From IMG/VR virus record IMGVR_UViG_3300025655_000017: a stretch of DNA of 64,000 nucleotides. The stretch is one strand, 5' to 3'. Of the stretch, positions 53,527-64,000 are shown in pieces (the first letter of the stretch is position 1; each line of letters opens with the position of its first letter). The notes beneath the pieces are model-generated. The model was not told the origin of the DNA. It worked only from the letters and a program-made list of their open reading frames with translations, and did no database searches. A program made the position numbers and the translations under genes. The stretch is from a virus.

Positions 53527-55233
53527 ATGGTTAATCATTTAACAGGATTAAACAAATCTTTTATACCGACCGATAATCTTTTAGTAGAAAAATACAGTAA
53601 TTATTCTGAACATGATAAATTTGGGCAGTATGATAATTATAACTTCTTATTAGAAAAGACTGAACCTGAAAAGGAACAATTAAGTTTGCTTTTAGAGAAT
53701 GTGTCAGGAAATGTGTCAGGTGTTTTCGCTTCTATTGCATTTCCACTTATTAAGCGTACTTTTGATAATATCATATCAAAAAGCCTAGTTACATTTTACC
53801 CAATTGATAAAGCATCAAGTAAAATTTTCTTTTTTTATCCTAAAGTATCATCTCGCAGAGAAAGCGGTGGTAAGCAAATTCACATAGAAAATACAAGTGA
53901 TTATAAATGTTTAGGATTAAATTGCCCTGAGCCTTTTGTGGAAAGCTGTAAATCATTTTACGATCAGCTTTATAATGATTCTTTTTATGATCAATCTAAA
54001 GGAGCGTATGAAGTTATAGTTGCTACTGGGACTCCTTTTTCATTTGATGCAGATAGTTGTATAGTACCTTATACAGATGTCACCTCACAAGATAATACTA
54101 TTAGAGCCATTGGTTTTAAAATAACTGGATTAAATAACAAGCCAGTCTTTAGTAATGGCAGAGGAAATGAAATAGCTGTTGAAGAATTTATTACATCTTT
54201 TAGAGTTATAAACTCTGGTGCTCCTATTGTTGATTCATCTGATAATGTAATATATCAAACAGGTGATGAAGTTAAGGGAAGATTTTTCGCACAAAAATAT
54301 GGGGATAGTATTGTACATGTTGATGATTTATGCGATGAAAATGGGTATATTTTATATGAAATTGATTTAAAACATCCTGTTAGTTCTGGCAATCCAACAA
54401 CATATGATGGATATGTTGGAGTTTTACCTAACGTTAATATTTCTTCAAATTTTACATTTACTTGGAAACGATATGATACCCTAGAAAATAATGGACAAAT
54501 TAGTGAATATGGTTTTGATTTACGTGGTATAGATTTACAAGTTGTTGATCGAATGACTAGAGCGATATGGTCACCACAACTTCAAATGGATTTACAAGCA
54601 TATCAAAATATTAACGCTAATAAAGAATTTATTAATTCTATGTCGCAGCAAATTGCCTTAGAAATTGATAGAGAGATTTTACTTGATTTAAAAAACGCTG
54701 CGCCTTGGGCATTAAGATTTGATTATTTAGGATGGCAAAATACCACTCAAACTTACAATCAAGAGTTATGGAACAAAAAATTATTCGACAAGATTAATGA
54801 GGTTTCAGCACAAATACATAAAACGACTAATTGTGGTGGAGCAAATTGGGTTGTTCTTAGTCCTGAAGCTTCTGCTCTGTTCCCTAATTTAAGCATTTTA
54901 AGAGAGGGAGAGACACTTACAGAAAAAGATAGGTACAACATAGGTCTAAAGAGAGTAGGAACCTTAGGAGGGAGATATGACGTATTTATTGATGCTTTTG
55001 CTAAACCTAATGATATACTTATTGGGTTTAAACCAGAATCATTGACAAATGTGGGGTATATTTATGCACCATATGTTTTAGCACAACCAAGTGTTCCTGT
55101 TATGAATCCAAATAATTTCTCTATAAATCAGATGTTAATGACTAGATATGCAAAGAAATTTACTAATAGCAAGATGTATGGGAAAATTTACGTAGATAAT
55201 ATACCTACATTTAATACATTTGAAAGTCGATAA
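53527..55233 (+). CDS. T4 gp23/gp24-family capsid protein (major capsid or vertex paralog)
   Basis: IAFPLIKR, WSPQLQMDLQAYQNI, IALEIDREIL, GGANW, GYIYAPYV, MTRYAKK. Confidence 0.85.
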   Translation: MVNHLTGLNKSFIPTDNLLVEKYSNYSEHDKFGQYDNYNFLLEKTEPEKEQLSLLLENVSGNVSGVFASIAFPLIKRTFDNIISKSLVTFYPIDKASSKIFFFYPKVSSRRESGGKQIHIENTSDYKCLGLNCPEPFVESCKSFYDQLYNDSFYDQSKGAYEVIVATGTPFSFDADSCIVPYTDVTSQDNTIRAIGFKITGLNNKPVFSNGRGNEIAVEEFITSFRVINSGAPIVDSSDNVIYQTGDEVKGRFFAQKYGDSIVHVDDLCDENGYILYEIDLKHPVSSGNPTTYDGYVGVLPNVNISSNFTFTWKRYDTLENNGQISEYGFDLRGIDLQVVDRMTRAIWSPQLQMDLQAYQNINANKEFINSMSQQIALEIDREILLDLKNAAPWALRFDYLGWQNTTQTYNQELWNKKLFDKINEVSAQIHKTTNCGGANWVVLSPEASALFPNLSILREGETLTEKDRYNIGLKRVGTLGGRYDVFIDAFAKPNDILIGFKPESLTNVGYIYAPYVLAQPSVPVMNPNNFSINQMLMTRYAKKFTNSKMYGKIYVDNIPTFNTFESR

Positions 55234-55244
55234 ATTTACTGTAT

Positions 55245-56336
55245 ATGTTATACACATTATTATGCATATTATGTTTTATAAACATAATATGCATTTTTTT
55301 TAATTTTTTATTTTATAAGCGTAATTATTATAAAATAAAAATTATAGATGGAATACAAAAAAACAGTCAGGTTTGCATATACGTTAAAGATAAAAATCAT
55401 AGATTTAATTTTGTAACTGATAATTTTGAAGAATTTGCACCATTATATAACGTGTTTGGATTTACAGATTATGATTTTTTCCCTAAAGACATTGCTGATA
55501 AATTTAGAGAGGGAGACTTACATGTGAGGTCAACACATGAAAGGTTAAATATTATTGATGCATTAGAATTAGGAGATAATGTTTTATATTATAATTCATC
55601 TAAATTTATGATTGATAACGAAAACATGTGTGGTGTAAGCATAGATATAACTAATGAAATTAAAAAAAGTGAAAAGGTACAAGAAACGAATAATTTTTTA
55701 ACTCATATAAATTACATAATAAGACATGATTTATATAACTCAATAAATTTAGTTAATCAGTTTTTTATTAAAATCGAAAAAAAAATTGAAATAGAATATT
55801 TAGAAGAGCATAAAATAATTGGAGCTTTTAAAGCTTTAAAACAATGTATTTTTACTTTAAAAGAAACCTTTCAAGGGATTTGTGATTTTAGTATAATGTT
55901 GGATGATCATAAAAAATTACCTGTTGAAAGTTTTTACTTAAGTGTAATATTAAATGATTTTTTAAAAAAAACCGCTTATTATTCATATGTAGATATAGAT
56001 GAAGAAATGGGAATAATTACAGCAAATAAATCATTGATGATAACGGCTCTTATCAATTTAATAAAAAATGGAATTAAGCACAATAATTCACAAAATAAAA
56101 AAGTAAAAATTTATAAATGTGAGAATGATCTACTTATAGAAGATAATGGGTATGGTATAACAGATGAACAACTTTCTAAATTTATAAAGCCATATTCACA
56201 AGCAAATGATAATGGTGAGGGATTAGGGTTAGGATTATCAATAACAAACCTAATTTTAAAATACCATAATTTAAATTTATCTGCTTTACCTAAAGAAAAC
56301 GGTACTATTTTAGTAATAAAAAATATATTCATATAA
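55245..56336 (+). CDS. membrane-anchored PAS-domain sensor histidine kinase
   Basis: N-terminal TM; PAS (IYVKD..RF...GFTDYDFFP); H-box RHDLYN; N-box NLIKNGIKHN; G1 DNGYGI; G2 GLGLGL. Confidence 0.9.
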   Translation: MLYTLLCILCFINIICIFFNFLFYKRNYYKIKIIDGIQKNSQVCIYVKDKNHRFNFVTDNFEEFAPLYNVFGFTDYDFFPKDIADKFREGDLHVRSTHERLNIIDALELGDNVLYYNSSKFMIDNENMCGVSIDITNEIKKSEKVQETNNFLTHINYIIRHDLYNSINLVNQFFIKIEKKIEIEYLEEHKIIGAFKALKQCIFTLKETFQGICDFSIMLDDHKKLPVESFYLSVILNDFLKKTAYYSYVDIDEEMGIITANKSLMITALINLIKNGIKHNNSQNKKVKIYKCENDLLIEDNGYGITDEQLSKFIKPYSQANDNGEGLGLGLSITNLILKYHNLNLSALPKENGTILVIKNIFI

Positions 56337-56370
56337 TATATTTTTATATTTATATGAAAAAAAAGTTTTG

Positions 56371-56817
56371 ATGTTTAGCAACTATAAAATAAAAACACTT
56401 TTATGTGTTGAAGATGATATATTTTATTCATATCTTTTTCAAGATGCAGCAGAAAGTGTAGATTTAGCAATAAAAGTAAAAGCCATTCATTCTTCTGATG
56501 AAGCAGAAGAATGGTTTATTAAATCAAGAAAGCGGGGGGATGTTCCTGATTGTATTTTTGTGGATGTAAATCTTAAAGGGTCTTCTTTTTCTGGGTTAGA
56601 ACTTATAAGAAAAATTAATTTTGAACATGGAAATAACGTTGTTATTGGTGTTATATCAACATCTAATGATGATCAAGAAAAAGCAACAGCAGTAAAAAAT
56701 GGGGCACAATTCTGGATTTTGAAAGACACGTTAGATTTAGAAAAAGTATTAATTGATTTTAAAGATGATTTTATAGGTTTTCAAAACAGATTATTACCAT
56801 TTAAAACCTATAAATAA
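56371..56817 (+). CDS. single-domain response regulator (receiver)
   Basis: VEDD, FVDVNL (phospho-Asp), GLELI, STS, K. Confidence 0.9.
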   Translation: MFSNYKIKTLLCVEDDIFYSYLFQDAAESVDLAIKVKAIHSSDEAEEWFIKSRKRGDVPDCIFVDVNLKGSSFSGLELIRKINFEHGNNVVIGVISTSNDDQEKATAVKNGAQFWILKDTLDLEKVLIDFKDDFIGFQNRLLPFKTYK

Positions 56818-57419
56818 TGATTATTGATGAAAAAACATTTGAGGCTCTATATGAATTAAAAGAAACACAGGAGATTTTTTTGAGTGGAGATATAATAAAA
56901 TTTATAGAGCCTCAAGATGAATTACAAAAAGTATATTTGTTTGAATGTATTACTTTATATAAAAATTCTATAAGAAATCGTTTAAGTACTTCACAACTAG
57001 TTTTAAAACAAAATTTACAACTAGTAAAAAAGGAAACTATTTTATTAGAAACGTTAGAACAATTAAGAATTGAAAGTGAAGCAGTAAAAGAAGAAAAAAA
57101 TAGAACTAAAGAAATATTAGTTTTAACCGAAAGAGATAAAGTTTCTGCTGAACAGCAAGTAGAGATACTCAAAACCAGTAAAAAATTAGACATATTAAAT
57201 AGAGGGTTACTTTTTAGTATGATAGCTATATTTACTATTATTGTTAGTGTTACTCTTATTCAAACTGCTTTTCTGTATAAAAATTTAGAAACTGATCAAA
57301 TTATAGGCAATGTGTTTAATATATACAATATCTTACTAACTGGTTTACTTACAATAGTCAGCAGTGTCTTAGGGGTAAAAATAGGGTTAAATAATAATAA
57401 GGAAGAAAAAACAGTTTAA
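56817..57419 (+). CDS. coiled-coil protein with two C-terminal TM helices
   Basis: Translationally coupled to the receiver gene (TAATG). Confidence 0.7.
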   Translation: MIIDEKTFEALYELKETQEIFLSGDIIKFIEPQDELQKVYLFECITLYKNSIRNRLSTSQLVLKQNLQLVKKETILLETLEQLRIESEAVKEEKNRTKEILVLTERDKVSAEQQVEILKTSKKLDILNRGLLFSMIAIFTIIVSVTLIQTAFLYKNLETDQIIGNVFNIYNILLTGLLTIVSSVLGVKIGLNNNKEEKTV

Positions 57420-57495: not shown

Positions 57496-58121
57496 ATGGC
57501 ACGACAAGTTGGAAAAACAATGAGGGCAATTGAAAGATTTGTTATGAACTATGATAAATCTATATTTATCAATCCTAATAATGAGTCAACTAGATCAACA
57601 ATTGAAACAATCCTTCTTAATTACCCTCATCTAAATCCCGGATTTTTAAGTAAAAAAGTTTTCTCGCTTAATGCTAATAGAAATAAATACATGGATGCCA
57701 GATATGGGGAAAAAATATTATATTTGATGAATATTTATCATCCCCAGTCAAAGATGGCGTAATTTCTATTCTTTTCCCCCAGTTAGAGAACATATATGTT
57801 TATTCATCATTTGATAAAGAGTACATTGTATTAAATAATACCGTGCCAAAATATAGATTACCCGATTACATGATAATTAATTTACCCGAAGTAGATAGAT
57901 TGCAATTTCGGCAATTTAATGATGTTTTGCTCACTAATGATAATACAAGAATATTGGTGGTTCCTAATTACAACATCAATACTAAATTAGAAAAGCAGTT
58001 GGGGGAAAGAGCTTACAAAATAGGAGTTTTAAATAATATATTATCAAGCAGCGATAATAGTTCTTTATTGTGGGATCAAGCGTTTATGGCATTATTCCCC
58101 AACATATCAGATAAACATTAA
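57496..58121 (+). pseudogene. frameshifted P-loop NTPase (terminase/helicase-like ATPase fragment)
   Basis: ARQVGKT in frame 0; IIFDE Walker B appears in the -1 frame right after GGGGAAAAAA (57706-57715), and that frame stays open into ORF 57843-58121. Confidence 0.6.
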
Positions 58122-58195
58122 CAGTTTTATTTAGTTGATAATCAATTATTTAAGGTAATTAGTTATCTTTATAAAAGTTTTTTTTGCTAAAATCC

Positions 58196-58226
58196 TTGCC
58201 AGTTAACAAAAAACAACCTACGTTTG
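58196..58226 (+). promoter_or_regulatory. Bacteroidota-type promoter
   Basis: TTGC...TACGTTTG. Confidence 0.65.
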
Positions 58227-58270
58227 CAACGTAGTTATAAAAAACAATTTTTTCATCTAAAAAAAATATT

Positions 58271-58636
58271 ATGCAAATTGACGTTAGTGATAGCACAGTT
58301 CATTTGGTAGAAACAATTTGTCCTAAGGGGACAAAAGACAAAGTATTATATACTGCGTTAAAAATGACTTGTTGGAATGAAAATGCTGAGGTAATTTTTG
58401 AAGCAGGAATAACATGTCATTAATGCAATTATATAAAACATGTTCAATGTTGTCATATTATTGATGTTTCTAAATTTTCAGATGAAACACCATTAAATAT
58501 AATTAATCACCCAGATAATTTATTATGGCTTTGCCCCAATCATCACTGGGAATTTGATAATGGCCTCCTTGATAGTTTATATGATTTAATAAAAGATCAT
58601 GAATTATTGAAGAAATACTTGCACATGATAAAATAA
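58271..58636 (+). pseudogene. HNH endonuclease with an in-frame TAA
   Basis: ...GITCH*CNYIKHVQCCHII...NLLWLCPNHHWEFDNG; stop at 58421-58423 splits a CxxC. Confidence 0.7.
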
Positions 58637-58731
58637 ATCTGTATATTTGCATAGTAATTAATAGAAAGAATATTTTTTTACTATTTATTTTAAGAAATAG
58701 TTGCATTATAAGAAAAAAGTTTTTATCTTTG
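58619..58731 (+). promoter_or_regulatory. tandem Bacteroidota-type promoters upstream of the tRNA array
   Basis: TTGC(58619)...TATATTTG(58642) and TTGC(58701)...TATCTTTG(58724). Confidence 0.7.
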
Positions 58732-58767
58732 CACTGTTGAAAGTCGAAAGACTATAAATTTTTAAAT

Positions 58768-58841
58768 CGGAGATTAGAGCAGTCTGGTAGCTTGCTTGGC
58801 TCATAACCAAGAGGTCATTGGTTCAAATCCCTATATGTGCA
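58768..58841 (+). tRNA. tRNA-Met(CAT)-like, degenerate or chimeric
   Basis: Good D arm and anticodon arm (CTTGG-CTCATAA-CCAAG) and GGTTCAAATCC, but the outer T stem and acceptor stem do not pair. Confidence 0.5.
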
Positions 58842-58878
58842 ACTACAAAAACTTTTTTAAAAACATAATTTAATAGAA

Positions 58879-58971
58879 ATGAATACAATGCTAAAAAATA
58901 CAAAGATTAATAATGCAGCGCAACCGCTTCATGGGGATCGTTGTATCTACGCACTAAAGGTTCATTTTTGA
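58879..58971 (+). CDS. attenuator leader peptide (30 aa, MNTMLKNTKINNAAQPLHGDRCIYALKVHF)
   Basis: Hand translation; last codons overlap the antiterminator arm. Confidence 0.65.
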   Translation: MNTMLKNTKINNAAQPLHGDRCIYALKVHF

Positions 58972-59028
58972 CAGAAAAAAAGTTTTACTTCAAAAAAACC
59001 CTTTAGTGCAAATTAAAGGGTTTTTTTT
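58951..59028 (+). terminator. attenuator: mutually exclusive antiterminator and intrinsic terminator
   Basis: Terminator AAAAAAACCCTTTA-loop-TAAAGGGTTTTTTTT (58992-59028); GCACTAAAGG (58951-60) is perfectly complementary to CCTTTAGTGC (59000-09). Confidence 0.8.
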
Positions 59029-59128
59029 ATGTTCATTGACATAGTTGGATTATTTTAGAAAATATTAACTGAAAAAGGTAGTCAGTCCTTTGGAGTGCAA
59101 ACATTATTGCCACCAGTTGATACATAAA

Positions 59129-59204
59129 GGTCTATGGGGCTGCTTGGGTTGGCCGTCGGATTGTCTATCCGAATATCAGATGGGTTCAAATCCCATATAG
59201 ACTG
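59129..59204 (+). tRNA. tRNA-Asp(GTC)
   Basis: GGTCTAT/ATAGACT acceptor; TCGGA-TTGTCTA-TCCGA; GGTTCAAATCC. Confidence 0.8.
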
Positions 59205-59210
59205 CAACAT

Positions 59211-59290
59211 GCTCCTGTACGCAAAATAGGCAAAGCGGCCACACTTAGGATGTGGTGATTTATTTGTGGGTTCAAGTCCCACTGGGAGTA
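59211..59290 (+). tRNA. tRNA-Leu(TAG)
   Basis: CCACA-CTTAGGA-TGTGG; extended variable region; GTTCAAGTC. Confidence 0.85.
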
Positions 59291-59371
59291 CAATTTAATA
59301 AGTTTCAAGTAAAAGTGCTTACTTAAAGACAAATAGTGATTTGATCTTTTTAATGAAGATTATTAATATAT

Positions 59372-59445
59372 CTAGATGTAGCTTAAATGAATAAAGCACC
59401 ATGTTTGGGACATGGAAGATGTCAATTTGAGTTTGACCATCTGGA
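59372..59445 (+). tRNA. tRNA-Pro(TGG), atypical D/T loops
   Basis: CTAGATG/CATCTGG acceptor; CCATG-TTTGGGA-CATGG; T loop TTTGAGT; no GG in the D loop. Confidence 0.7.
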
Positions 59446-59462
59446 CTTTTTTTGAAAAAGGA

Positions 59463-59740
59463 ATCTCTAACGTATGTCGAAAGAGATATAGGGCTGGCAG
59501 TTAGCCTATTGCAGTTTAAAAATAACTTTTATACGTTTTTTTAAACGCATAAAGAAATTAATATATAACTATTAATTTTCATACTGTTGGAAACCAATGA
59601 TTGCATATGAAAATGTAATCTTGTTTACTAAACACGTTTTTAGTGGTTGCACTGAACCCTTGATTTTTAGTAAAAAATCATAAACAGGCTACAAAGATCA
59701 GTTTATTAAAACTGTCAATAATAACGTTAGGTTAGCTGCC
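59463..59740 (+). ncRNA. unassigned structured RNA (~280 nt)
   Basis: 13-bp closing helix 59496-59508/59728-59740, further long-range helices and several internal hairpins; no long ORF. Confidence 0.55.
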
Positions 59741-59766
59741 ATTGATTAATTTCATAAAAAGCTCCA

Positions 59767-59840
59767 CAGGAGTTAGCTCAGTTGGTTAGAGCGTCATCTT
59801 TACATGGTGAATGTCAATGGTTCGATCCCATTACTCTTGT
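59767..59840 (+). tRNA. tRNA-Val(TAC)
   Basis: CAGGAGT/ACTCTTG; TCATC-TTTACAT-GGTGA; GGTTCGATCC. Confidence 0.8.
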
Positions 59841-59852
59841 CATTTTAATTAT

Positions 59853-59928
59853 GGTCTATGGGGCTGCTGGATGTGGCCACTCCCTTGTCGCGGGAGAGAT
59901 CAGACGGGTTTGAATCCCGTATAGACCG
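59853..59928 (+). tRNA. tRNA-Asp(GTC), second copy
   Basis: GGTCTAT/ATAGACC; CTCCC-TTGTCGC-GGGAG. Confidence 0.8.
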
Positions 59929-59942
59929 CTTTTATTATTTAT

Positions 59943-60015
59943 GGGGCATTGATGAAACTGGCTATCATATAACACCTGCAATGTTATTTTACGGGTTCAA
60001 ACCCCGTATGCTCCA
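59943..60015 (+). tRNA. tRNA-Ala(TGC)
   Basis: G3:U70 in GGGGCAT/ATGCTCC; TAACA-CCTGCAA-TGTTA. Confidence 0.8.
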
Positions 60016-60071
60016 CCCAATTAATTGACTATCAGTGTTTTATGTTATGTCAGTTAATCTTTTACTTTAAT

Positions 60072-60149
60072 ACTGAGATACCCCCCTTGACTGATATTCA
60101 AAATAAAGGTAATTGGGTGAAAATATGGATTCGACCCCCATTCTCAGTA
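60072..60149 (+). ncRNA. tRNA-like element (acceptor stem and T arm, no clear D or anticodon arm)
   Basis: ACTGAGA/TCTCAGT, then ATGG-ATTCGACCC-CCAT. Confidence 0.5.
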
Positions 60150-60161
60150 CTTTTTTTACTA

Positions 60162-60233
60162 GCAGGTGTGGTGTAATTGGTAACATACAATCCTTCCAAG
60201 ATTAAGTCGCAAGATCGTTCCTTGTCACCTGCT
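60162..60233 (+). tRNA. tRNA-Gly(TCC)
   Basis: GCAGGTG/CACCTGC with U73; AATC-CTTCCAA-GATT; T loop ATCGTTC. Confidence 0.8.
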
Positions 60234-60246
60234 CTGATTTTTACAT

Positions 60247-60320
60247 GCTTCTATAGCTCAACTGGATAGAGCAATTCCCTACGAAGGAATAGGTTGTTAG
60301 TTCGACTCTAACTAGAAGTA
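60247..60320 (+). tRNA. tRNA-Arg(ACG)
   Basis: ATTCC-CTACGAA-GGAAT; canonical D and T arms. Confidence 0.9.
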
Positions 60321-60331
60321 CAAATTTTTAA

Positions 60332-60403
60332 AGACCTATCGTATAATGGCTATTACCCCTGATTTTGAGTCAGGAAATTCCAGTTCAAATCTGGATAGGT
60401 TTA
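60332..60403 (+). tRNA. tRNA-Gln(TTG)
   Basis: CCTGA-TTTTGAG-TCAGG; TCCAG-TTCAAAT-CTGGA. Confidence 0.85.
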
Positions 60404-60458
60404 TTTTTTTTCTTAATATGTTGCATTTGTAGTTTATTTTATGTAACTTTACTTTAAA

Positions 60459-61184
60459 ATGAAAAAATGGAATTTAGAGGAAACAAATAAATTAAAACTA
60501 TATATAGCTCAAAGAATGAGCTATGAAGAAATTTGTTTAAAAATGAATAGGACTTTTAGTTCGGTTGGTAATAAAGCTAGAAAATTAAATTTAACATATA
60601 ATCCTAAAAAAAGAATTTATCGAAGTTTATACATTTGTCAAAATACAAAATGTGTAAAAACATTTGAAGGATACGTTATAGCTAACCCGAAATATTGTAG
60701 TAGTTCATGTGCTGCCCAAGTAAACAATTTAAATGTTCAAAGAAATAAACAAAAAAAAATAGATTTACCTCCAAAAATAAATAAACAAAAAATAATAACA
60801 CATAGTTTTTGTTTATACTGTAAGGCTGCTAAACATAATATCTATTCAACTTACTGTAGTGTAACATGCTCTAGTGAACATAAGAGAGACATTAAGATTG
60901 GATTATGGTTAAATGGAAAGCACAGTGGACATAAAGGAAAAACTTTACAATTATGTGGTTTTGTAAAATATCATCTGAGAAAAATCAGAGGCACAAAGTG
61001 CTGTCAATGCGGGTGGGATAAAAAACACCCTATAGATGGAGCTACATGTAACCATATAGATCACATTGACGGTGATGCATCTAACAATAAAATAGAAAAT
61101 TTGAGAATATTATGTCCCAACTGTCATTCATTAACAGCAAACTTTGGTTCACGTAACAAAAATTCTGCTAGAAATTTTAATTAA
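60459..61184 (+). CDS. HNH endonuclease with N-terminal HTH and Zn-finger repeats
   Basis: CCQCG...HIDHIDGD..NN...NLRILCPNCH; YCSxxC repeats. Confidence 0.9.
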   Translation: MKKWNLEETNKLKLYIAQRMSYEEICLKMNRTFSSVGNKARKLNLTYNPKKRIYRSLYICQNTKCVKTFEGYVIANPKYCSSSCAAQVNNLNVQRNKQKKIDLPPKINKQKIITHSFCLYCKAAKHNIYSTYCSVTCSSEHKRDIKIGLWLNGKHSGHKGKTLQLCGFVKYHLRKIRGTKCCQCGWDKKHPIDGATCNHIDHIDGDASNNKIENLRILCPNCHSLTANFGSRNKNSARNFN

Positions 61185-61186
61185 CA

Positions 61187-61218
61187 TTAGGATTAATCAG
61201 TTATTTTATTTATCTTTG
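61187..61218 (+). promoter_or_regulatory. Bacteroidota-type promoter
   Basis: TTAG...TATCTTTG. Confidence 0.65.
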
Positions 61219-61240
61219 TGTCAACAAAAACAAAAAAATC

Positions 61241-61507
61241 ATGAAATTATTTTATGTTTTATTATTGATTACTGTATTGAGCTTTACTAATTGTACCGAA
61301 CAAGCTAGAACAAAAGCCTTTGGAGGAACTATGACGATTGAACTGGAAAAGGGAGAACGTCTTATTGAAGCTACTTGGAAAGATACACAACTATGGTATT
61401 TAACTGAACCGATGAAAGAAGATTATGTGCCTAATACTAAAACGTTTAGAGAACAATCTTCATTTGGAATGATGGAAGGAAAAGTTGTATTTAAAGAAAG
61501 TCGATAA
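61241..61507 (+). CDS. small phage lipoprotein
   Basis: Signal peptide plus Cys (FTNC); FGGTMTIEL..G.RL...TWK...LWYLT. Confidence 0.75.
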   Translation: MKLFYVLLLITVLSFTNCTEQARTKAFGGTMTIELEKGERLIEATWKDTQLWYLTEPMKEDYVPNTKTFREQSSFGMMEGKVVFKESR

Positions 61508-61599
61508 TATTACATAAGAAATCAGATGGTAGTACATGTAAATAATATTAATCGTTCAGTTCAGCACAGAGGTTATGTTATTTAGTACTATCATCAAAT

Positions 61600-61723
61600 T
61601 CTCCGGTGGCTTAGTTGGTTAAAGCATCCCACTTTCCTGTCCATTTATTAAGACTAATCCGTTTTAGTTTTTTAAAGGCCAAGATTAATGGGAGGATCGT
61701 GGGTTCGAGTCCCACCCGGAGAA
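61600..61723 (+). tRNA. tRNA (probably Lys-TTT) with a 50-nt insertion in the anticodon loop
   Basis: Perfect acceptor TCTCCGG/CCGGAGA, D arm, TCCCA/TGGGA anticodon stem and T arm; 57-nt loop. Confidence 0.75.
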
Positions 61724-61737
61724 CATAAAAGCTAAAT

Positions 61738-62658
61738 ATGTCAAGAAACGTACAACATTCTTTATTGGGAAAAGCTAAGGCTAATAAAAAAGATGAATTT
61801 TATACACAATTTAAAGACATAGAGGGTGAATTAAAACATTATGAACATCATTTTAAAGATAAAATAGTTTATTGTAATTGTGACGATCCTAATGTTAGTA
61901 ATTTTTCAAAATATTTTATTTTAAACTTTGAAAGATTAAAACTAAGAAAATTAATTTCTACTGGGTATAAGAAAGAAGGTAGAGGAGTTGGAAATCTTTA
62001 TAAAAAAGATCAAAATAAAATTATTCGTCTAGAAGGTAATGGAGATTTTAGAAGTGAAGAATGTATTGAATTGTTAAAAGAATCAGATATTGTAGTTACT
62101 AATCCTCCATTTTCTTTGTTTCGTGAATATGTAGGACAATTAATAGAATACAAAAAAAATTTTCTCATTATTGGCAATATAAATGCTCTTACCTATAAAG
62201 ACATTTTTAAGCTTATTAAAAATAATAACGCTTGGATGGGTATTAACATGGGAAGAGGAATCTCAGGGTTTATCGTTCCAGAACATTATGAGCTTTATGG
62301 GACAGAGACTAAAATAGACGATGAAGGAAATAGAATAGTCTCACCTAATAATTGTTTTTGGTTGACAAACTTAGATACATCTAAACGACACGAAGACATC
62401 GTTCTTTCAAAAACATATTATGGATGTGAAAGTGAATATCCAATATATAATAATTATGATGGTATCAATGTAAATAAAACAAAAGATATACCAAGGGATT
62501 ACAGGGGAGCTATGGGTGTACCAATAACATTTCTGCATAAATTTAATCCAGATCAATTTGAAATAATTAAATTTAGAAAGGGAAATGATGAAAAAGATTT
62601 ATCAATAAATGGCAAATGCCCATACTTTAGAATTTTAATTAAAAATAAAAGATTATAA
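61738..62658 (+). CDS. adenine-specific DNA methyltransferase, EcoRI family
   Basis: KKDEFYT, YCNCDDP, GDFRS.EC, VTNPPFSLFREY, MGVPITF. Confidence 0.9.
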   Translation: MSRNVQHSLLGKAKANKKDEFYTQFKDIEGELKHYEHHFKDKIVYCNCDDPNVSNFSKYFILNFERLKLRKLISTGYKKEGRGVGNLYKKDQNKIIRLEGNGDFRSEECIELLKESDIVVTNPPFSLFREYVGQLIEYKKNFLIIGNINALTYKDIFKLIKNNNAWMGINMGRGISGFIVPEHYELYGTETKIDDEGNRIVSPNNCFWLTNLDTSKRHEDIVLSKTYYGCESEYPIYNNYDGINVNKTKDIPRDYRGAMGVPITFLHKFNPDQFEIIKFRKGNDEKDLSINGKCPYFRILIKNKRL

Positions 62659-62715
62659 AAATAGAAAGACAGAAGCTTGGCAGACAGGTGATATTAGTAA
62701 ATTATATTTTTATAA

Positions 62716-62789
62716 ACCCCTATAACTCAGTTGGTTAGAGTATCGTACTTTTAATGCGAGAGTCCTTGGTTCGAGTCCAAGTAGGGGTA
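62716..62789 (+). tRNA. tRNA-Lys(TTT)
   Basis: ACCCCTA/TAGGGGT; TCGTA-CTTTTAA-TGCGA. Confidence 0.9.
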
Positions 62790-62803
62790 CAAATTTTATT
62801 AAA

Positions 62804-62893
62804 GGGGGTGTAGCTGATGTGGTTTTAGCGGGAGACTGTTAATCTCTGATTGAAAATATTGAAATAAAGTGGGTTCGAATCCTACCGCCCCCG
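62804..62893 (+). tRNA. tRNA-Asn(GTT) with a long variable region
   Basis: GGAGA-CTGTTAA-TCTCT; ~21-nt variable region; G73. Confidence 0.8.
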
Positions 62894-62904
62894 CTTTTAT
62901 TTAT

Positions 62905-62978
62905 TCTGAGGTGGCTGAATTGGTTAAGGCACGTTTCTTGTAAAAACGGTTTTGCAGGTTCGAATCCTGTCCTCAGAT
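62905..62978 (+). tRNA. tRNA-Thr(TGT)
   Basis: TCTGAGG/CCTCAGA; CGTTT-CTTGTAA-AAACG. Confidence 0.8.
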
Positions 62979-63050
62979 CATTTTTTCTAAAATAAACTTG
63001 CAATTGTCATTAATTAATCTTATCTTTACAAAAATTAAAACACAATAATT

Positions 63051-63248
63051 ATGAAAACAATTTTTATTCTTTATTTTGCTACTATAGCTTTTGCACTTTT
63101 TGGTTGGGGGAGCTGTATTCACAAGTTTATCCAATGTGACTTTGACAGTACAAAAACAAGTTATAAGTCAGAAATTATCTATGGTGTTGGTACATTTGTT
63201 CCTGTGATAGGAGTTTTTATAGGATATATGAATGTAGGAGAAGGTTAA
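63051..63248 (+). CDS. small membrane protein
   Basis: 65 aa with two hydrophobic segments; promoter-like TTG...TATCTTTA upstream. Confidence 0.65.
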   Translation: MKTIFILYFATIAFALFGWGSCIHKFIQCDFDSTKTSYKSEIIYGVGTFVPVIGVFIGYMNVGEG

Positions 63249-63301
63249 AAAATTTTTTATAGGTATTTGCTTTTATGCATTTATCTCTGTATCTTTGTAT
63301 T

Positions 63302-63859
63302 ATGGAACAAATAAAATTACAACTTACAACAGGGAATGATAAACAATCACGCAGAGCGTTAGATTTTTATCCTACTCCACCTGAAGCGACTATAGCTTTA
63401 TTGGACTTTCTTAAATTAAAACCTACTACAGTATGGGAGTGTGCTTCTGGAAATGGAGCAATGGTAGATGTGTTAAAACAATATGGTCACGATGTAATAG
63501 CTACAGATATAATAAATGGGGAAGATTATCTTCTCATAAAAAGAGATGCTGATATTATTATCACTAATCCACCATTTAATATATCAGATAAGTTTATAGA
63601 AAAAGCAGTTAATGAATGCTCAATTGTTGCATTTTTGTTAAAAACACAATATTGGCACGCAAAAAAAAGATATAAGCTTTTTAAAAAACATTCACCATCA
63701 TACATTTTACCTTTAACTTGGAGGCCAGACTTCTTATATCAAGAACGAAAAAATGGAGCAAAAGGTTCTCCAACAATGGATGTTAATTGGAATGTTTGGA
63801 TAAAAGGTGATTCAACTACTAAATATTTACCTTTACTAAAACCAAATAACATTTTTTAG
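63302..63859 (+). CDS. DNA N6-adenine methyltransferase
   Basis: DFYPTP, WECASGNG, ITNPPF; promoter TTTG...TATCTTTG at 63266-63297 supports start at 63302. Confidence 0.85.
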   Translation: MEQIKLQLTTGNDKQSRRALDFYPTPPEATIALLDFLKLKPTTVWECASGNGAMVDVLKQYGHDVIATDIINGEDYLLIKRDADIIITNPPFNISDKFIEKAVNECSIVAFLLKTQYWHAKKRYKLFKKHSPSYILPLTWRPDFLYQERKNGAKGSPTMDVNWNVWIKGDSTTKYLPLLKPNNIF

Positions 63860-63875
63860 TAAAAATTTAAAAATT

Positions 63876-64000
63876 ATGAGAATAACATTTGACGCATTAT
63901 TTTACTATGCAAGAGAACAATATGGTATTGGGTGGAATCCATGTAATGACATATTTTTTGGTGGCGTTCTTGATTATGGTTCATTCAATGAATATGATCG
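63876..64000 (+). CDS. hypothetical protein (partial)
   Basis: ATG at 63876, open to the window end. Confidence 0.55.
   Translation, partial: MRITFDALFYYAREQYGIGWNPCNDIFFGGVLDYGSFNEYD

Follow-up and report, generated by a model that had tools for sequence, protein, structure and literature searches.

A possible leader-peptide attenuator in front of the tRNA genes of an uncultured T4-like phage

Background

The 64,000-nucleotide (nt) stretch of IMG/VR record IMGVR_UViG_3300025655_000017 analysed here (the window) is DNA of an uncultured, T4-like phage with a Bacteroidota-type host, and it raises the question of how transcription reaches an array of nine tRNA genes that stands behind a promoter, a 30-codon open reading frame (ORF) and a strong intrinsic terminator. 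Phage tRNA genes are usually regarded as constitutively co-expressed cargo. The evidence presented here points, short of proof, to tRNA synthesis that responds to ribosomes stalled by a scarcity of those tRNAs. The array may be gated by a transcription attenuator of the ribosome-mediated, leader-peptide kind, one that has a counterpart elsewhere in the genome; we give this reading an even chance of being correct. An initial annotation, made from the letters of the window alone, had proposed such a sensor of tRNA-pool depletion.

Layout of the first unit

The first unit (unit 1) and the array behind it (array 1) consist of the following features, all on the plus strand:

58619..58649, plus strand: promoter P1 (TTGC, 19 nt, TATATTTG), with an inferred start near 58654, 82 nt upstream of P2
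58701..58731, plus strand: promoter P2 (TTGC at 58701-04, 19 nt, TATCTTTG at 58724-31), with an inferred start near 58736
58768..58845, plus strand: degenerate tRNA-Met-like element, anticodon CAT (Rfam RF00005, 35.5 bits, partial match to model positions 6-65)
58879..58971, plus strand: leader ORF of 30 codons (stop TGA at 58969-71), between the promoters and the terminator
58992-59028, plus strand: intrinsic terminator with a 9-bp stem (58999-59007/59012-59020), a GCAA loop, and A7 and T8 flanks
59129..60403, plus strand: tRNA array 1, nine tRNAs (Asp, Leu(TAG), Pro(TGG), Val(TAC), Asp, Ala(TGC), Gly(TCC), Arg(ACG), Gln(TTG))

The host-type promoter P2, the ORF with its peptide and the strong terminator are present as the initial annotation described them; P1, which stands in tandem with P2, and the tRNA-Met-like element between promoter and leader ORF were absent from it. 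The coordinates of both promoters run from the -33 box to the -7 box. P2 is of the Bacteroidota sigma-A type, a form that recurs before other genes of the window, and almost the same promoter stands before a lone tRNA-Lys gene elsewhere in the genome (L066:13986), which serves as a control in having neither a leader nor a terminator. The contig L066 is one of several with identical proteins, taken from several public assemblies, that were used to read beyond the end of the window; it reaches about 18 kb past that end, and a window coordinate equals the L066 coordinate plus 61488.

Array 1 contains eight tRNA species among its nine tRNAs. No TAnnTTTG or late-promoter motif that might serve the array itself was found in 59029-60403, although promoters of unknown types are possible there. 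A sigma-70-like site (59036-59063) was considered as a promoter and rejected: such matches are not above shuffles, and the genes of the phage use the Bacteroidota motif. Multiple testing is mild, because the window holds only three strong intrinsic terminators; the two others follow protein genes, as do the other strong terminators in L066. An attenuator is favoured because the terminator of unit 1 is promoter-proximal, because the other strong terminators of the window and of L066 stand at the ends of protein genes, and because array 1 has no recognisable promoter.

Antiterminator and alternative folds

The leader contains a strand that can compete for the 5' arm of the terminator. As first described, GCACTAAAGG (58951-60), near the end of the leader ORF, is the exact complement of 59000-09, and the helix continues through TTTTTGA/TCAAAAA (-19.7 kcal/mol, z -4.8). 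When the 146 nt upstream are shuffled with dinucleotides preserved, 0.24% of the shuffles contain a perfect 10-nt complement and 0.1% an equally stable duplex (p=0.001); the same duplex test applied to four control terminators of this genome gave p values of 0.12-0.67. Membership of GCACTAAAGG in a repeated element was considered and rejected, there being no other copies. The pairing segments are:

58875..58891, plus strand: segment 1, the start-codon region, pairing with 58959-58969 and 58951-53; anti-antiterminator
58951..58971, plus strand: segment 2, the antiterminator 5' strand (GCACTAAAGG plus TTTTTGA), overlapping the last six codons and the stop
58990..59011, plus strand: segment 3 (TCAAAAA, A tract, terminator 5' arm, GCAA loop), pairing with segment 2 or segment 4
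59012..59028, plus strand: segment 4, which comprises the terminator 3' arm (59012-59020) followed by the T8 tract (59021-59028)
58898..58946, plus strand: central hairpin inside the ORF, a predicted fold that may be a pause hairpin

The trp/his-type geometry that had been claimed for the locus is present and is more complete than was noted, with an extra segment at the start codon (58875-85); since this segment is predicted to bind the antiterminator strand, the locus has the full set of four trp-type segments. The RNA from 58846 to 59022 folds far more stably than its shuffles (z -4.75). Its predicted minimum-energy fold has 58875-85 paired with 58959-69 inside a domain that is closed by an outer A/U helix (58848-58/58976-86), with the terminator formed after it. 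The suggestion of a pause hairpin within the leader survives in part, in that a hairpin is predicted there (58898-58946) with a pairing different from the one originally written. Predicted folds of the growing transcript pass through three steps: segment 1 pairs with segment 2; synthesis of 59009-59016 lets segment 2 form 10 bp with segment 3; and after synthesis of 59020 the 1:2 pairing and the terminator return. When a ribosome was modelled as 31 blocked nt on RNA that ended before the terminator 3' arm, the antiterminator was the best fold for stalls at codons 14-21 and without a ribosome, and was lost only with a ribosome at the stop codon. The duplex statistic (p=0.001), the switching of folds and the finding that only a ribosome at the stop codon removes the 2:3 pairing together favour an attenuator.

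The same folds could be put to use by a regulated terminator that needs no ribosome, whether riboswitch-like, protein-controlled or tRNA-binding, in which a factor would stabilise or open the closed domain (58848-58986), thereby freeing or sequestering the antiterminator strand, and the ORF would be incidental. The domain is indeed closed, significantly stable and directly before an expression platform with real strand exchange, and a tRNA-like element is part of the same transcript. However, a cmscan search of 58000-64000 with the Rfam cis-regulatory families, including T-box, yielded only tRNA matches at E values up to 1, with noise in 58846-59128, and a switch of this kind leaves unexplained the placement of the ORF and the match of its codons to the tRNAs (see below), as well as the second unit, which has no tRNA-like element before its ORF and folds quite differently. 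We regard it as improbable.

Leader codons and the tRNAs of array 1

The leader ORF begins in an A/T-rich context that has no Shine-Dalgarno sequence, like the other genes of the phage. Considered by itself, the ORF makes a weak case, and this start context is no more than typical. Its use of 17 of the 20 amino acids, to which attention had been drawn, is correct as a count and unremarkable, being reached by 5-12% of controls. The broader claim that every downstream tRNA box is represented by a codon in the leader holds for 11 of 11 boxes (10 of 11 by strict wobble), a coverage of 11/11 being attained by 0.4% of 16,584 30-codon windows of real genes and by 1.5% of composition-matched open shuffles. 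Leucine is encoded by CTN and arginine by CGT, as had been observed, against genomic preferences for TTA and AGA, and at 10 of the 12 informative positions of the leader the synonymous choice is a codon read by a phage anticodon (4.4 expected; p=7e-4). One part of the ORF is a candidate for the sensor:

58915..58941, plus strand: candidate sensor block, codons 13-21 (AAQPLHGDR), covering six of the eight array 1 tRNA species by strict wobble and seven by codon box

None of the 16,584 real-gene windows contains a 9-codon block that covers at least six species of array 1. The link between leader codons and tRNAs is statistically unusual.

A second unit

A second unit (unit 2) of the same kind is present at L066:14321-14549, with these parts:

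L066:14321-14351: promoter of the same type as in unit 1 (TTGCA, then TATATTTG)
L066:14383-91: late-promoter motif, CTATTTATA
L066:14396-14479: ORF of 27 codons, MKNVTVYYYNFSWCFFSEESEKTLGVM
L066:14505-14549: terminator with an 18-bp stem, its T tract ending one base before the first tRNA
from L066:14550: tRNAs Glu(TTC), Phe(GAA), a Tyr(GTA)-like element whose acceptor stem is broken, and Ser(GCT)

The Tyr and Ser assignments were read from the sequence, Rfam recognising Ser weakly and Tyr not at all. The leader of unit 2 contains three codons each for Tyr, Phe, Ser and Glu, a composition shared by 0.04% of the 27-codon windows of real genes and by 0.01% of open shuffles; a conservative count (at least 10 strictly cognate codons, all four types represented) is reached by 2.7% of real windows and 0.5% of open shuffles. 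The ORF lies in a long predicted hairpin (L066:14404-14491, z about -5), of which the 5' arm holds the Tyr, Phe and Ser codons and the 3' arm holds ACTAGGGG, which can pair with CTCCTAGT in the 5' arm of the terminator. An attenuator is favoured because this long predicted 1:2 hairpin bears the regulatory codons in its 5' arm.

Each leader fits its own array and not the other (cognate codons for own/other array, 10/2 for leader 1 and 4/10 for leader 2; Fisher p=0.008). The positions of the two ORFs are also alike: an ATG-initiated ORF of at least 25 codons that ends 15-45 nt before the terminator stem is found in 4.5% of shuffles of unit 1 and 2.6% of shuffles of unit 2, for a joint chance of about 0.1%, and the spacing from stop codon to stem is 27 nt in unit 1 and 28 nt in unit 2. 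The 3' parts of the units can be aligned (CACTA..GGTT, A tract, C...TAGT, TTA..G, T tract), and xCA CTA xxG GTT is read in one and the same frame in both. At two positions the antiterminator pairing has A-T in one unit and G-C in the other, with both strands changed, which in a comparison of two sequences is a hint and not covariation. The codon match, the existence of unit 2, the specificity for each array and the placement of the ORFs are all reasons to favour an attenuator.

Since a promoter, an ORF with a typical start context and a terminator make up a complete minimal gene, both short ORFs might be genuine small-protein genes and not sensors, with the tRNAs expressed by unrelated means. 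We consider this very unlikely: in unit 2 the terminator reaches to one base before tRNA-Glu and leaves no space for another promoter, the two leader peptides are unlike except at four C-terminal positions, and neither the codon-tRNA match nor the antiterminator would be explained.

Proposed mechanism

In the attenuator that we propose, host RNA polymerase would start at P1 or P2 and would transcribe first the tRNA-Met-like element and then the 30-codon leader. Without translation of the leader, segment 1 would hold segment 2, and segments 3 and 4 would form the terminator; if a ribosome read through to the TGA, it would cover segment 2 and the terminator would again form. A ribosome stalled upstream, at codons 13-20, would leave segment 2 free to pair with segment 3 as it emerged, so that no terminator would form and the polymerase would enter the tRNA genes. 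Because codons 13-20 are read by tRNAs of the kinds encoded downstream, a shortage of these tRNAs would switch on their synthesis, and a sufficient supply would switch it off. Leader translation, coupling of translation to transcription, regulated read-through and a physiological trigger are parts of this model that we infer.

We lean slightly against a more general form of the model, in which the sub-arrays would each stand behind a leader that lists their own tRNAs and would be transcribed on demand when ribosomes stall for those species, as a translation-coupled feedback on tRNA supply. The feedback loop could double as a detector of host anticodon nucleases. A link to anticodon-nuclease defence is plausible. 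Phage tRNA genes are described as countering tRNA-cleaving defences (PMC10264068, PMC11464382).

Evidence against an attenuator, and a leaky terminator as its main rival

The reading of the locus as an attenuator in the initial annotation is upheld in part, by the geometry, the match of codons to tRNAs, the recurrence at unit 2 and the lack of a recognisable promoter for array 1, and falls short at the antiterminator of unit 2 and in the position of the sensor codons in unit 1. These and several other points count against it. The antiterminator of unit 2 (8 bp, one G-U) is not above chance (p=0.15), the picture there is complicated by an equally good alternative partner (TAGGAGAT) at the start codon and by the late-promoter motif 4 nt before the ATG, and the Tyr tRNA behind this unit looks degenerate. 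In unit 1 the sensor codons lie between segments 1 and 2 and not in segment 1, unlike those of trp and his, and no single codon is repeated in a run. The equilibrium fold of RNA that includes the complete terminator keeps the 1:2 pairing plus terminator, by about 5 kcal/mol, so that read-through, if any, would have to be kinetic, as it is in known attenuators; it is by a steric argument, and not from the folding, that the 1:2 pairing would stay open behind a stalled ribosome. Most of the statistics were chosen after the data had been seen and are to be discounted accordingly.

Wherever they overlap the window, the contigs with this region match it at 100% identity, so that there is no variation to compare. 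Relatives of the phage did not turn up in viral contigs, metagenome contigs, genome contigs or phage records. Searches of viral, metagenome and genome contigs with exact and gapped DNA patterns of the leader, the terminator and the module shared by the two units recovered no related leader units; the gapped-pattern matches were unrelated chance hairpins and were set aside. Among proteins encoded nearby, only a widespread methylase and a distant HNH gene had matches in viral contigs, and a search with a 16-mer of tRNA-Asp found unrelated arrays only. The nearest major capsid protein in a large protein collection and phage records is 55% identical and is encoded on 2-kb contigs, and relatives at 40% identity are on longer contigs without synteny.

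In three unrelated phage contigs, ordinary genes of 58-122 residues end in strong terminators that precede tRNA arrays by 9-68 nt. Terminator read-through into tRNA genes is therefore not special in itself, and it may be common and unregulated. This also bears on the main rival explanation, in which a constitutive, partly leaky terminator or insulator ends a short transcript (the tRNA-Met-like RNA with a structured tail), a fixed fraction of polymerases enters the array, and the ORFs and their codon match are due to chance. Several of the weaknesses of an attenuator are points in its favour: 18% of composition-matched shuffles of the ORF body of leader 1 are open, as are 9% of those of leader 2; leader 1 uses rare codons (GCG, CCG, GGG, CGT, ATC, TAC) and sits in strongly structured RNA (z -4.75), as in a non-coding structured RNA; and the antiterminator of unit 2 is not significant. 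A leaky terminator is nevertheless rather unlikely in our estimation, as it does not account for the joint placement of the ORFs (about 0.1%), the match of codons to own versus other array (p=0.008), the synonymous choice in leader 1 (p=7e-4), the 10-bp antiterminator of unit 1 (p=0.001) or the frame and spacing common to both leaders.

Gene expression signals and host of the phage

The window has a G+C content of 28% and encodes a T4-type major capsid protein (53527-55233, PF07068/phrog_138). No Shine-Dalgarno signal is present at its genes, and promoter-like motifs of the Bacteroidota sigma-A form (TTGC or TTTG, 19-20 nt, then TAnnTTTG) are located directly 5' of several of them. Flavobacterium psychrophilum has a TAnnTTTG (-7) box at -12 to -5 and no Shine-Dalgarno sequences, and leader-peptide attenuation is suspected before its amino-acid operons (PMC9723704). 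Because the phage has promoters of Bacteroidota type and, as in F. psychrophilum, no Shine-Dalgarno sequences, its host is most likely a member of the Bacteroidota. An attenuator is further favoured because flavobacteria, which are without Shine-Dalgarno sequences, show signs of leader-peptide attenuation (PMC9723704) and because the start context of the leader is gene-like.

A second promoter-like motif of the window, CTATTTATA, resembles T4 late promoters and precedes the gene for the capsid protein and others. The window has it in nine exact copies (3808, 11867, 18474, 36216, 43848, 45065, 45109, 49070, 53506), of which six (3808, 11867, 43848, 45109, 49070, 53506) lie 7-15 nt 5' of gene starts, including that of the capsid gene. 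This motif is likely to be a late promoter, by analogy with TATAAATA of T4.

Neighbouring genes and other RNA elements

Immediately behind the capsid gene, the interval 55245-57419 encodes a phage PAS/HATPase histidine kinase, a receiver domain that stands alone and a membrane protein. The true start of the kinase ORF is probably further downstream than annotated, because a strong terminator (55263-55293) lies inside the annotated start. An HNH endonuclease frame (58271-58636, plus strand; motif HPDNLLWLCPNHHWEFDNG) is broken by an in-frame TAA (58421-23) and ends inside promoter P1; it is either a pseudogene or a frame with a recoded stop.

The tRNA-Met-like element of unit 1 (58768-58845) was not called by ARAGORN. 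Its D arm, anticodon arm and T loop are intact, and the 3' strands of its T stem and acceptor stem are non-complementary. The missing 3' end was not found elsewhere in the window, and an intact homologue of the element is present at L013:11051-11123. Both this element (Met, CAT) and the tRNA-like element of the second array (L066:14743-14828; Tyr, GTA) retain the anticodon arm and the T loop (GGTTCAAATCCCT), and in both the complementarity of the acceptor stem is gone just past GGTTCAAATCCCT. The tRNA-Met-like element is flanked by a 22-nt inverted repeat (58713-58734/58837-58858, 86% complementary), which would be transcribed only from P1 because its left arm overlaps the -7 box of P2.

Within array 1, the 320-nt gap between tRNA-Pro and tRNA-Val (59447-59766, plus strand) has a closed multi-branch fold (z -5.7, outer helix of about 14 bp) and no Rfam match; judging from the predicted fold, it may be a structured RNA that belongs to no described class. 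A tRNA-sized element (60072-60152, plus strand) with a 7-bp acceptor-like closing helix and no recognisable cloverleaf (z -0.8) lies in the gap that separates tRNA-Ala from tRNA-Gly and is probably a decayed tRNA. A further tRNA match (61600-61723, plus strand, 56.5 bits) was not called by ARAGORN; since it spans 124 nt, it has an insert of about 50 nt. After the second tRNA array, a G+C-rich segment of about 130 nt in very A+T-rich DNA (L066:15140-15270), which has no Rfam match, may be a structured RNA.

Significance and comparison with known systems

A literature search found no description of an attenuator or sensor before phage tRNA genes. If the proposed mechanism is correct, these are, to our knowledge, the first known tRNA genes to be controlled by ribosome stalling on their own codons, and unit 1 is the first mixed-codon panel sensor. 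Such units would constitute a simple homeostatic circuit for tRNA supply during infection, with which the phage would answer depletion or cleavage of host tRNAs only when it occurs, and they would offer a compact natural part for codon-specific translation sensors. The attenuator hypothesis is directly testable with short synthetic constructs.

The leader-peptide attenuators of the trp, his, phe, thr, leu and ilv operons follow the Yanofsky model. Like these attenuators of amino-acid operons (Gollnick and Babitzke 2002, as cited in PMC9723704), the phage element has a promoter-proximal short ORF, predicted 1:2, 2:3 and 3:4 pairings and an intrinsic terminator with a U tract; its stop codon is placed such that a terminating ribosome would cover segment 2, and its codons would report the supply of charged tRNA. 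Unlike them, it is encoded by a phage, its targets are tRNA genes and not genes of enzymes, and unit 1 has, between segments 1 and 2, a panel with a codon for each tRNA species downstream in place of a single-codon run. Four codon types are mixed in unit 2, as two or three are in the thr and ilv leaders.

The pheST attenuator of Escherichia coli (pheM leader) has a leader rich in cognate codons that controls a synthetase and senses one amino acid. The phage units resemble it in that a leader rich in cognate codons would control a translation-apparatus gene that is connected with that very tRNA, and differ from this bacterial system, with its synthetase and its single amino acid, in that the product is the tRNA itself. 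With T-box riboswitches they would share the sensing of the state of particular tRNAs and a terminator/antiterminator switch, but T-boxes bind uncharged tRNA directly, without a ribosome, through conserved Stem I and T-box sequences, to which there is no match here. The available parts of the studies of phage tRNAs in anti-defence (PMC10264068, PMC11464382) share the context that phage tRNAs replace host tRNAs that have been cleaved or run down; they treat the tRNAs themselves, and a transcription sensor is not described in those parts. The class of mechanism is that of the classical leader-peptide attenuator, and what would be new is the tRNA-gene target, the codon panel of unit 1 and the phage setting.

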